Positions 8,291-36,738 of a stretch of 38,750 nucleotides of DNA are shown one piece after another (the first letter of the stretch is position 1; each line of letters starts with the position of its first letter). Origin of the DNA: Cystobasidiomycetes sp. EMM_F5 (lineage: Eukaryota); NCBI GenBank assembly GCA_051047955.1, contig JBPGPT010000004.1, positions 744,001-782,750 on the forward strand, written 5' to 3'. Both the position numbers and the translations under genes were made by a program. The notes beneath the pieces are model-generated. The model was not told where the DNA came from. It made no database searches and was given only the letters and a program-made list of their open reading frames with translations.

Positions 8291-9390
8291 TTAGTCCGCC
8301 TCCATGCCGTCGTCTCCATGCTGCTCGTCTCTGTCGCTGTCCTGCTGCGCACCCGCTCTCAACGCCTCCAAGCCCATCTCACGTTCCCCATTCACCCCGC
8401 TCTGCGTTCTCCAAATACTATCCGGTCTCGCATTCTTGCTCGTAAACAAGTCTGCTCCACCCGAGATGGTAGAGATGAGGACTTGCAGCCTATTCTGCGT
8501 CAGATCCTTGCCCTCCTTTTTCCGAATCTCATCGAGGGACGACCCGAATCTGCCAACCATGCGAGAAACGTAGTGCTTCCTCCAATCTGCAAATGCCGCC
8601 TCCTCCCTCGCATCAATCTCTTCCGTCGTTGTGGCTGCCGTGGCTGATCTGTCGGTCGGCAGTAAACCCCATAGGATCGGTTGGCCAGCTGCAATACGTT
8701 GCGCTTTAGCTTGTGCCTCGGCGTCAATCCCGAATGTAAGAAAGGGCGGAGACGGTTCACGGACGGGTGAAGGTCGTCGTTCTCGTTGTTGTGGTATTTG
8801 CGACTGTGTTTGCAAATGTTTGTCGGATGTGTCGAAAAAAGATGCAGAATCTGCACCGTTGGCTAGACGGGAAGAAACTTCTCCGGCATCATTTCCGTTG
8901 CGCAATGACTGCTGCTGTTGCTGTTGACCACCTTTCCTCCGTCCCTTGCGAGCGGTAGACTCGTCACTCGATGTCGACAGAAACGACGAAGACGAAGCGT
9001 CACTACTGCTCGATGCGTCTGAGTCGTCTGACGAGTCCGAGCCGTCGTCTTTTAGCGTCAGAGCAGGATTGGGTGCCGAAGTAACATTCTGTTTGCCGTT
9101 CGGTAAGGGTTTGGAAGGAATATTTGCTGTCGATGTGCTAGCTATTGGCTGTTCAGAGCATGGGTAAGCCTCGACTCAAGCCATTGTGAAGCTGTACCAT
9201 CACTCACTCCTTCTTCGTCACTATCCTCATCACTGCTATCGCTGCTCAGATCCAACTCCTGCTTTCCTTTACCACCTCGTCGTTTCCTGCTCCGAGTACG
9301 CTTTCGCTTTGCTTTTGGCTGGCCGTTTGGATTTAGCGTACCGTCAGCGCTACTCTTGGACGTGGATGCAGTAGCAGAGGCAGCGGGCAT
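8291..9390 (-). CDS. Ribosome-assembly protein 3 (Rsa3)-like nucleolar protein
   Basis: Basic NLS-like tract (KAKRKRTRSRKRR) and acidic Ser/Asp tracts, with one GT-AG intron near 9149-9207. The C-terminal WRKHYVSRMVGRFGSSLDEIRKKEGKDLTQNRLQVLISTISGGADLF resembles the Rsa3 C-terminal domain. Confidence 0.7.
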
Positions 9391-9694
9391 GTTTGAGTGA
9401 GTTGGCAAAAGAGAGACCATGACTACAGATTTCTAGACGAAACATAGTCATCACCCTGCAACAGCCCAAGCATTGTAATAGATGCGGAGAATGGTATTGC
9501 ATTTGGGTTTGAATGGCATTGCCCAAAAGAAAGTCATTACAAGCTTGCGCATATGACAACAGGCTGAAGCGTGGCTTAGCCACAACTCGAAATGATGTCA
9601 GGTGCACATGTAGAAGGCTGGAAGCGGCCTAGCCATGACCACAGATGCATACCAACATGGAAAGCTTGATTCGGGATGCTCGTCCCTTGATTCT

Positions 9695-10253
9695 TTAGGC
9701 CTTGGTCTCCTCATCGACCCGGCCGCTGCAGCACGAGTTTGGTGCCTCCTTGACCTTGTCGACCGACGCCTGACCGCAGTTGCAGCATTCACAAGAGCAC
9801 TTGTCATCACAGGTGCATACGGCAGCCTTGTCGGTGCTGTGGAACAGAATTTGAAGACAGAGCACAAATGATGTGAACAGGAATGAGATGAGCAATTGGC
9901 GATATAAGGGCATGCATCAGTCTATCGTTGGTGTAGAACAATTCCAATCCAAACCCACCTCTGCTGGCAGTTGCAGGTCGAGGAACCCTCTTTGCGACCG
10001 CCACAGCACGACTTTGGCGCATTTTCGACCTGGGAGACTGGGGCCGTCTTGCACGAGCAACCGTCGCAGGTGCACGATGCTCCACAGGTGCATGCGTTGG
10101 CCTTTCCGGAGCTGCGGTGCGAATTGTGAGATGCGGTTTACGATGACGATGAGCCCAATGCGCCCACTGATTCTGGCAGTCGCAGGTCTGGAGGTTGAGG
10201 AAGGATGTCAGCGTATGACTCTTACAAGGCTGCGATTTGCTGCTCACCGTCAT
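9695..10253 (-). CDS. Metallothionein with two tandem Cys-rich modules (106 aa, 21 Cys)
   Basis: Exons 10253-10248, 10187-10168, 10111-9959 and 9836-9695 (all GT-AG) give MTTCDCQNHSGKANACTCGASCTCDGCSCKTAPVSQVENAPKSCCGGRKEGSSTCNCQQSTDKAAVCTCDDKCSCECCNCGQASVDKVKEAPNSCCSGRVDEETKA*. About 20% Cys in CxC/CC motifs, no Phe/Trp/Tyr, no signal peptide. Confidence 0.9.
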
Positions 10254-10457
10254 GTTGATGTGTTTGTTGGTTGGTTGTCAGGAGAACAAGATTCAAATTG
10301 ATATCAATGTCGAGATGACAGTCAACAAACTGGGAAGTAGTAATTAGCAAGTCTCAAAAGGTTACTGAATGAATACATACATGCCAGGACTCGTCGAGAA
10401 GGAGCAATCACTGCAAGGCTATCTTCAAGAAGCCGTCGTGGACTTTACAATATAATC

Positions 10458-11315
10458 ATGACGGACAACAGCCAGCCAGACGATGACCACGACGATGGCT
10501 ACTATGCAGATGAACGCAGTGCAATGCTCGCTATCCTGGAACGCACAGTCTCAGCCCAGCTCGTTTACGAAAAGCCAGCAGTAGTCCAGCCAACGAGTGA
10601 GCTGCATCCGACAAAGAAGCAGAGAAGAGCAATGCGGAAACGAGAGGAGGGCAAGGTGGAGAATGAGCATGAAGACCAAGTCACGCACACTGCTTTTCGG
10701 CTATTTACGACTGAAGAGGGGAAAGTGCCGCTCGTAAGGCTCACGAGTCCGGAAGCAGTATACAACGGTCCAGGGAAGGGCAGAGTGCTGTAAGTGTGTC
10801 GCGGGAGTGTGATTCTGCACAAATGTTTGACATTGTCTGGTTCAGTGACGTCGCGAATGAAGATCCAGAAGTCGTCCAAGAGCGGCAGAGACGGATACAA
10901 GAGACGGCAGTCGATGCAGAGTGGATACATCTCACATCGTCGCCAGATCATTGGGCAAGTCTGCCTTTGCATTCATCAAGTAACTGACACTCATCTTTCC
11001 AGCCCAATTTTGCAGAATACTACGCACTGCGCCAATAAAGTCATTCACAAGACCCTATGCGCAGCCCACTCTACGTCCAATCGTACTTCATACTCTACTC
11101 TGCCTATCCTCGGTTTCGTAGACTGCGCAAGGATGAAGAACCGTCCTCTTGCCAGAGTGTCTGTACGAGCATACCCCAAACCCGGATGTAAACGCCTCGA
11201 TGACCGTGTTTATAAACGACGATTCGTCATGAAGCGCAATGCCAATAAACGCAATAGTAAGCGGAGGAGGGAGCACGAGAGGAAGGGGACTGCAAAGGAA
11301 CTCCCAGCGGGATGA
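10458..11315 (+). CDS. Conserved fungal hypothetical protein, DUF2011-like
   Basis: Three-exon model with an acidic segment before FRLF, a second exon RRIQETAVDAEWI...HW and a Lys/Arg-rich C-terminus, resembling the fungal DUF2011 pattern. The second intron appears to be GC-AG. Confidence 0.55.
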
Positions 11316-11533: not shown

Positions 11534-11586
11534 TGTGCACGTAGGTATGCGCCGTCGTGTGCACGTAGGTATGCGCCGTCGTGTGC
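11534..11586. repeat. Perfect 24-bp tandem duplication (about 2.2 copies)
   Basis: TGTGCACGTAGGTATGCGCCGTCG at 11534-11557 and 11558-11581, followed by TGTGC. Intergenic, upstream of the MCT transporter. Confidence 0.95.
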
Positions 11587-35375: not shown

Positions 35376-36738
35376 TCACACCGCCGAAGCTCGCGTCTCA
35401 TCCCGGCTCTCCTTGAGGAACGTCATGAACGGCGTACCCCCTGTCCCTTTAGCTTCCTCGGCCAGCCCGTACGACGGGTCCAGATTGGCGGTCGAGAGAG
35501 TGATGGCATCCGCACTGACCGCACTCGTTGGCCGCCGCGATTCGGTGAGGATATACCGTGCAGCTATCCGTATATGTCGATTTCGGAAATCAGATAGACA
35601 CCCTATCACCGTGTTGTATGCGTCAACCCATTGTTCTCCGTGCTTCGAGGTATACTCCTTGATGCACGCTTGCTGCTCTATATCTTGGATGAAGTCGCGA
35701 TGAGGTTTCGGAATAAGGCGTCTCATTTCCTGTGTCAGCAAGGGAGAGGCATCGAGTATCAGCCAATTCGTTTCCGCCCCATCTCTCCAAAGAGGGCGAC
35801 GCACATCTAGAGTACCCTTGGTATCCGCTTTTCCGCCAATTCGATGCTCCACGGATAGCGCGGCATCAAGGAAGTGAAAGAGCGGACTTTGAGCAGCAGA
35901 TCCCCCAGCTTCGACGTGCCATTCACCCTTGCCATCTCCAGTGTTGTAGTATATTCCCCTTGGCAGTCCAACAGAGCCCATACCCTTGGCACCCGCCCAG
36001 AAGGGTCGCATCTGGTTGTAAAATATCTCTGGACGACAATGATCGTAGACCCGGTCTAGCATCTTTGACACATCTCTCAATCTTGGTGCGAGTTCCCTGA
36101 GTAGTTGCAGGACGGTGTCTGCGTCGTCCACCTGTATTGCACCCATCGTCTGCAAAACGAGCTCAATGCACGGCGCGCCCAGCTGCTCGATGGCGACTGA
36201 TATCATGTAGAACCACTCTTCGTCCTCCAGTCCCGTGAAGCTGCTCAACGATCTGATCTTGTACGGATCTCCCCAATCTGATCCCGGGTCGGCCGTCCAA
36301 TTGTACATGGCCAATGCAGAATAGGTAACGGTAGGTGGGACACCGAAGTGTGAAGATGCAGCGAGAAAGGGGATGGAAACACACGGCGGTACAGTCTGTA
36401 GATACGAGATAATCGTTAGTGCCCCTTTGGACATGGTATGCATTTGCACTCGCCTCGTTTGGTCGGACTCCGCTACCCCATATCCAGGCATGGGCCAAGA
36501 ATGCGAGGACAGAATAGGCTCTCCTCCAATCATTCTCGTCTTGTAGTTGATCGATACCGACGATAGGAAGATTGAGAATGGCTTGCTGTACTGTCCGCGT
36601 TCGTATTAAGCGTGGCAGATCTGCTGAAACAGCTTCCCAGTGGCGATACTGAGGATGCCGTAGCGGTCGCAGCGGTTCCTCTGGGAGGAATCCATGCAAC
36701 AAGGACACTTGGTAGGCAGGAAGATCAAAGGTAGTCAT
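35376..36738 (-). CDS. BNA2: Indoleamine 2,3-dioxygenase (kynurenine pathway)
   Basis: HGFLP, WRRAYSVLAFLAHAWIWG, PPTVTYS-x4-YNW, SFTGLEDEEWFYMISVAIE, IFYNQMRPF, GGSAAQS, FRNRHIRIAARYI (heme-ligand His) and GTGGT. Two introns. Orthology to Bna2 versus other IDO paralogs is untested. Confidence 0.95.

Follow-up and report, generated by a model that had tools for sequence, protein, structure and literature searches.

A probable two-module metallothionein with a distinct 10-cysteine repeat unit, encoded by a spliced gene of Cystobasidiomycetes sp. EMM_F5

The question raised by the minus-strand segment at positions 10253-9695 of the Cystobasidiomycetes sp. EMM_F5 window (the whole 38,750-nucleotide stretch of DNA that was analysed) is whether it holds a functional metallothionein gene and, if so, how the repeat unit of the encoded protein relates to those already described. 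When four exons are joined at GT-AG introns, 321 nucleotides result, that is, 106 codons and a stop codon (Table 1), and the predicted protein contains 21 cysteines (19.8%), a single histidine and no aromatic residues, with a pI of 5.3. This spliced form is a model derived from the sequence. Under a working definition, metallothioneins are proteins of up to 300 amino acids with less than 10% aromatic residues and 15-35% cysteine (PMC7216689, in excerpt); the 106-residue protein lies within all of these limits, and its cysteines are arranged in CxC and CC motifs. A hydropathy scan revealed no stretch resembling a signal peptide, the first 30 residues holding one aliphatic residue, the start methionine. 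Together, the composition, the CxC and CC motifs and the missing leader point to a putative cytosolic metallothionein, and we consider it likely (probability of about 0.8) that the fungus has here a functional gene, present in one copy, for such a protein.

The same composition could conceivably belong to another type of cysteine-rich protein, either one that is secreted or built into the wall and bonded by disulfides, or one imported into mitochondria as a Cx9C substrate. Three Cx9C spacings are indeed present, and all matches to metallothionein families are sub-significant (see below). However, apart from the missing leader, aromatic residues are absent, large hydrophobic ones number only 7 in the whole protein, its cysteine number is odd and its CxC motifs are dense, which makes this alternative very improbable. 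Cx9C import substrates, in particular, need hydrophobic helix faces, and the spacers of the predicted protein do not have them.

Table 1 Features of the predicted gene and its surroundings, in positions of the window.
Feature	Position	Strand	Description
Promoter/5' leader stretch	10254..10457	.	204 nt, common to the divergent DUF2011-like gene; must hold promoter and 5' leader
Exon 1, coding part	10248..10253	-	start codon and one codon; donor 6/6 vs GTRAGY
Intron 1	10188..10247	-	60 nt, phase 0, GT..AG; branch-like CTGAC near 10212
Exon 2	10168..10187	-	20 nt; carries first CxC of module 1
Intron 2	10112..10167	-	56 nt, phase 2, GT..AG, donor GTGGG
Exon 3	9959..10111	-	153 nt, symmetric phase 2-2 cassette
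Intron 3	9837..9958	-	122 nt, phase 2, GT..AG, donor GTGGG; same module offset as intron 2
Exon 4	9695..9836	-	module 2 core and CC, acidic tail, stop codon
Probable 3' untranslated region	9481..9694	-	inferred from position between stop and Rsa3-like gene
Module 1	9994..10187	-	residues 3-48, 10 Cys, spans intron 2
Module 2	9719..9978	-	residues 54-99, 11 Cys, spans intron 3

Exon 3 carries the 8-Cys core and the CC pair of module 1, a 5-residue linker and the first CxC of module 2. Of the 16 in-frame routes into this exon, the four-exon model shares the top donor score with one other, which uses an acceptor 15 nucleotides downstream and loses the first CxC. Exon 2 as modelled is favoured because 15 of its 20 nucleotides are identical to the last 20 nucleotides of exon 3. 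Given this tied route and the fact that intron 1 is free of stop codons in frame (its retention would yield 126 amino acids), the 5' end is the least certain part of the model. Skipping of exon 3 would leave a 55-residue, 11-Cys, one-module protein ending at the natural stop, and retention of intron 2 or intron 3 would destroy the protein. The main product might thus differ from the 106-residue form, being instead the 55-residue protein, the 126-residue protein or the form without the first CxC: each of these stays in frame to the natural stop, the GTGGG donors of introns 2 and 3 match the consensus in only 5 of 6 positions, and the read contigs bridge no junction. We nevertheless regard a different main product as unlikely. 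In the relative described below, all 10 cysteines and the splice positions of exon 3 are retained, which argues that the exon is in use; exon 2 resembles the end of exon 3, and the intron ahead of it combines a perfect donor with a branch-like site.

The read contigs come from four of seven runs and are presumed, as a guess, to derive from RNA. X1 (9507-9768) and X2 (9481-9689) each cover part of the probable 3' untranslated region, X3 covers the neighbouring gene only, and X4 contributes none. As they bridge no junction of the gene, they weigh on neither side. Past 9481, contig X2 continues for 7 letters, which might mark where a poly(A) tail begins, if the guessed RNA origin holds.

An earlier note on this DNA had proposed that the protein consists of two aligned modules with the cysteine spacing CxC-x9-CxC-x3-CxC-x2-CxC-x14-CC, and this proposal was borne out. 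The spacing is the same in both modules, except for one extra cysteine in module 2 (at 9787-9785), and the modules are identical in 23 of 46 residues and, at the nucleotide level, in 90 of 138 positions; the 13 identities at positions other than cysteine were reached by none of 100,000 shuffles. Broken down by codon position, identity amounts to 29, 35 and 26 of 46 for positions 1, 2 and 3, respectively, and is thus highest at position 2. The exon-internal 8-Cys pattern has two matches in the window, a number that none of 100 shuffles produced. Introns 2 and 3 each fall at an equal offset after the first CxC of their own module. Their agreement in phase and offset suggests that the repeat arose by tandem duplication inside the gene, intron included; beyond the donor, the two introns show no significant likeness (214 of 2000 shuffles). 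Considering that the junctions lie outside all reads and that the exons are short, one might suspect that the reading is due to chance or that the gene is decayed. However, the frame remains open across three canonical introns, the internal repeat is significant, and the frame, the cysteines and the intron phase are conserved in a second organism, so that this suspicion can be given hardly any weight.

The second organism was found with a profile built from exons 3 and 4 and run against 1,835,955,588 representatives. This search yielded one relative (P0004, E = 3.4e-14), an unnamed 141-residue open reading frame on a 1,983-nucleotide ENA contig. Its last 45 residues represent the orthologous last exon, ending after a short acidic tail, with 27 of 39 residues identical to exon 4, 24 of 39 identical to exon 3 and the same 8 cysteines. 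The front part of P0004 resembles P0001, an off-frame open reading frame call of the EMM_F5 locus: P0004 is itself mis-called, in that it reads exon 3 off-frame through the intron and ends in the last exon. Off-frame decoding of P0004 placed all 10 cysteines of exon 3 among the 14 cysteine-compatible of 53 positions, in one ungapped register. Of the first 39 residues, 31 fit exon 3, compared to at most 23 in shuffles (n = 3000), and the first eight cysteines were compatible in 8 of 8 cases, a result reached by 1 of 3000 shuffles. As a control, the same decoding of the EMM_F5 gene itself recovered 50 of 50 residues. The P0004 reading calls for phase-2 splice sites located as in introns 2 and 3, together with a last intron of 97 nucleotides. 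Thus, as far as can be told from the protein letters of P0004, which were compared for exons 3 and 4 only, the relative appears to have two or more modules and to share the exon 3/exon 4 build.

Alignment of the three module copies shows 19 of 39 positions to be invariant, including A, V, V, A-P and S of the linker, whose conservation had been claimed earlier and is upheld here, as well as G-R after the CC pair. These observations are best explained by a module duplication that predates the split between EMM_F5 and the relative. Two further claims of the earlier note survive only in part. The description of a 10/11-Cys unit fits the gene studied here, but the last exon of the relative has 8 cysteines compared to 9 in exon 4; the extra cysteine of module 2 is missing there, and the unit is therefore one of 10 cysteines. 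Similarly, module 2 is more acidic than module 1 (6 vs. 3 Asp + Glu), whereas the last exon of the relative has 4 such residues compared to 6 in exon 4, and the suggestion that the two modules differ in metal preference finds no support in the sequence. The expectation that open reading frame callers would miss the spliced gene proved correct, since both known calls, P0001 and P0004, run through introns in the wrong frame; for this reason, more relatives may hide among off-frame calls. The gene is probably unannotated.

Other searches added weak leads. With exons scanned singly, along with the relative, no curated metallothionein profile in Pfam scored above its cut-off: exon 3 matched only PF01439 (E = 8; 7.9 bits, the cut-off being 23), exon 4 had no match, and the relative gave sub-significant leads to PF02068 (E = 0.0054) and PF00131 (E = 0.071). 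The PDB leads were 2kak (E = 0.026), 1m0j (E = 2.7) and an unrelated Nab2 zinc finger (E = 0.21), none of them significant; the entry 1m0j, labelled 'MT_nc', we take to be a fish domain, not a Neurospora protein. Atlas scores were all 0.84 or lower, and the top two matches were unnamed each time; the named matches, at 0.76-0.83, included metallothionein clusters and DUF7871 and are leads only. The weak leads from the Pfam, PDB and Atlas libraries are thus mostly metallothioneins, none significant. Metallothionein families, to our knowledge, share no common descent, and a missing profile match therefore does not exclude membership in the superfamily.

Searches for further relatives and for paralogues were negative within their respective scopes. 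The word-indexed homologue search gave no hit at E <= 1 among 16 candidates in the range of 89-2000 amino acids and no candidate at all in the range of 24-88 amino acids; this search is insensitive here, because it also missed P0004 at 141 amino acids. A metagenome locus search produced 135 pattern matches, none of which was confirmed. Cys-only DNA pattern scans of metagenomes and prokaryotes returned at least 120 and at least 117 stretches, respectively, with no relative among those listed; of the matches listed, 916 of 922 contained no fewer than 12 Cys-type codons, a feature of triplet repeats, and the module profile, when run on the 237 loci listed, reached a best E of 0.19 and detected no relative. 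In the EMM_F5 genome (18.3 Mb in 253 contigs), a short CxC pattern had 587 matches compared to 256 for the control, and many of the 100 listed were triplet repeats. No paralogue was found in this genome with exon 3, exon 4 or DNA as the query, and the gene appears, on these searches, to be single-copy. PF25277, PF02068, PF11403, PF00131 and PF05023 had no match in the genome, and the controls were equally silent, so that absence is not implied.

The gene is wedged, within 8291-10793, between two others, namely, a ribosome-assembly gene of the Rsa3-like type (Pfam E = 1.1e-7; start near 9390) and a fungal DUF2011-like gene (start 10458; E = 5.4e-4, below the cut-off). An intron in the DUF2011-like gene is supported by contig X3, which skips a 56-nucleotide GT..AG stretch at 10790-10845. 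None of the 14 neighbouring open reading frames scanned matches a metal-handling family; of the 12 other than the two flanking ones, 6 match Pfam families (NADH dehydrogenase, two MFS pieces, IDO, Arm and aldo-keto reductase). The indoleamine 2,3-dioxygenase gene lies at 35376-36605 (PF01231, E = 1.2e-90), and a perfect tandem repeat with a period of 24 and 2.2 copies is located at 11534-11586, upstream of the MFS transporter region.

The 204-nucleotide upstream stretch contains no Ace1-type, Mac1-type or MRE consensus. One Ace1-type match was found downstream of the gene, and intron 2 holds a single MRE-type match, but in the window as a whole the Ace1-type pattern is found 53 times. A single copper-fist domain was detected in the genome (L273, G000:C188:390050-390166, minus strand, E = 2.7e-19), and the gene that carries it, on the same contig and about 364 kb from the metallothionein gene, is a candidate regulator. 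The lack of a significant library match, the upstream stretch without a metal-response consensus, the finding of no metal-handling family among the neighbours scanned and the small base of one relative, seen through a mis-called protein, all speak against the metallothionein reading, which nonetheless remains the one that we favour.

If the gene encodes a metallothionein, its history and function can be outlined as follows. The ancestral gene would have had one module, made up of a CxC exon, a phase-2 intron and a core exon; tandem duplication within the gene would then have created the two 46-residue, 10-Cys modules and turned exon 3 into a symmetric cassette. Metal-free metallothioneins are unfolded, and the metal-free form of this protein presumably is as well, with the cysteines of each module wrapping one metal-thiolate cluster when metal is bound. 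Cu(I) would be the likeliest metal, by about 60:40 over Zn/Cd, because the first seven cysteines follow the Neurospora-type copper box. The conserved A-x-V-x2-V-x2-A-P-x-S linker may bring the CC pair back to the cluster, and the eighth cysteine and the CC pair would add ligands, giving perhaps 5-8 Cu(I) per module. By comparison, the 7-Cys box forms Cu5 clusters in the modular Cryptococcus proteins (PMC4755600, in excerpt), and Cup1 binds Cu8 with 10 cysteines (PMC13107397, in excerpt). The role of the protein would be copper buffering and detoxification, perhaps extending to cadmium.

Metal preference cannot be read with confidence from the cysteine pattern alone, and a sub-case of the metallothionein explanation has to be weighed, in which the same gene and protein form a Zn/Cd-thionein, the 21 cysteines holding approximately 6-7 divalent ions in two clusters and the role being zinc buffering or cadmium detoxification. 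The best library leads, wheat Ec and the fish domain, are presumably divalent-metal binders, and phytochelatin synthase was not found in the genome, though the control was silent too. Furthermore, the 10 + 11 cysteines are close to the 9 + 11 of vertebrate two-domain metallothioneins (PMC13107397, in excerpt), and many Agaricomycete metallothioneins guard against cadmium as well as copper (PMC12508003, Table 1, in excerpt). Conversely, the first seven cysteines form the family 8 box, the modular fungal metallothioneins built from this box are Cu-thioneins (PMC4755600, in excerpt), and the inter-cysteine positions of module 1 are mostly small residues. Binding of zinc or cadmium is, on balance, a real but minority possibility, and a copper-binding metallothionein is the version that we carry forward.

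Sampling of metallothioneins in fungi is sparse and mis-annotation is frequent. A repeat unit of 10 cysteines that is conserved would add another example of modular elongation in this group; the known roles of metallothioneins would be unchanged by it. Independent elongation of the module, as the earlier note envisaged, is plausible. A bolder and rather doubtful extension is that the gene represents a lineage-specific subfamily in which a Neurospora-type copper box is joined to a Cup1-like CC tail via a conserved, structured linker and in which alternative splicing yields one- and two-module proteins. If this were true, the symmetric exon would carry one module's worth of cysteines, lineages would gain modules by exon duplication, and the CC pair would either link the two modules or cap a cluster that exceeds the Cu5 formed by the 7-Cys box. 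The gene allows a clean test of two points, namely, the effect of adding an eighth cysteine and a distal CC pair to a Cu5 box, and the setting of module number by splicing.

New cysteine spacings are common among metallothioneins, and the unit was compared with the known types. We found no description of this unit in the literature; most subscription journals, as well as alignments given in figures, lay outside the search and may hold a closer match. One related pattern is the family 8 (fungi-I) box, CxC-x5-CxC-x3-CxC-x2-C, of the Neurospora crassa and Agaricus bisporus Cu-metallothioneins (PMC4755600, in excerpt). The likeness extends to the first seven cysteines of each module (CxC, then CxC-x3-CxC-x2-C), of which the CxC-x3-CxC-x2-C part is also seen in the relative, and the CxC-x3-CxC core is likewise present in Candida glabrata MT1 and in the Neurospora metallothionein (PMC4755600, Table 1, in excerpt). 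The differences lie in the first spacer (5 residues in family 8 vs. 9 here), the size (one box of about 26 amino acids vs. two modules in 106 amino acids) and the number of cysteines (7 in family 8, with three more here, namely, xC and then CC after 14 residues). The longer first spacer and the eighth cysteine emphasized by the earlier note are thus genuine, but the first seven cysteines still make up a Neurospora box.

The modular proteins CnMT1 and CnMT2 of Cryptococcus neoformans and TmMT of Tremella mesenterica share with the EMM_F5 gene tandem internal repeats and many short exons, and CnMT1, with 122 amino acids, is in a similar range of length (PMC4755600, in excerpt). Their unit, however, has 7 (or 6) cysteines, a pair of prolines following the second CxC and a proline after the last cysteine (PMC4755600, in excerpt), whereas the unit of EMM_F5 has 10 cysteines, lacks those prolines and includes a conserved linker and a CC pair inside each repeat, the only conserved proline of the module being located in the linker. 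This comparison, which uses the published unit description rather than full CnMT sequences, agrees with the earlier view that the unit differs from the 7-Cys boxes of these fungi. Mis-annotation of long modular fungal metallothionein genes has also been published before (PMC4755600, in excerpt).

The distal CC doublet is present in both modules but is less of a novelty than previously suggested, having a precedent in the tail of Saccharomyces cerevisiae Cup1 (family 12). The C-terminus of Cup1 reads CxC-x10-CC-S-G-K (PMC4755600, Table 1, in excerpt, counted by eye), so that a C-terminal CxC is followed by a Cys-free linker and S-C-C-S-G-K; the modules described here end in S-C-C-[GS]-G-R. The linkers differ in length (10 residues in Cup1 vs. 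14 here), as do the upstream cysteine patterns, and Cup1 has no repeat; its N-terminal CxCxC cluster has no counterpart in the EMM_F5 protein, and PF11403 matches neither exon. Convergence or chance would seem a likelier source of the Cup1-like tail than descent.

In Agaricomycetes, heptaCys metallothioneins are recognized by the hallmark C-x4-CxC-x2,3-CxC-x4-CxC (PMC12508003, in excerpt), which is absent from the EMM_F5 protein. Intragenic duplication that includes an intron has been described for metallothioneins of Agaricales and Boletales and is seen in the long proteins AcMT1, HcMT, HmMT and LbMT2, with introns of about 50 nucleotides; what is duplicated there is part of a domain, and the length reached is 49-59 amino acids (PMC12508003, in excerpt), whereas a whole module appears to be doubled here. 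As the unit fails the family 8, Cryptococcus/Tremella and Agaricomycete patterns as written, we judge from the sequence that it is a distinct 10-Cys variant, set in a probable two-module metallothionein whose gene is real and conserved. Its ingredients, a Neurospora core, a Cup1-like tail and internal duplication, are each known already from other fungal metallothioneins.
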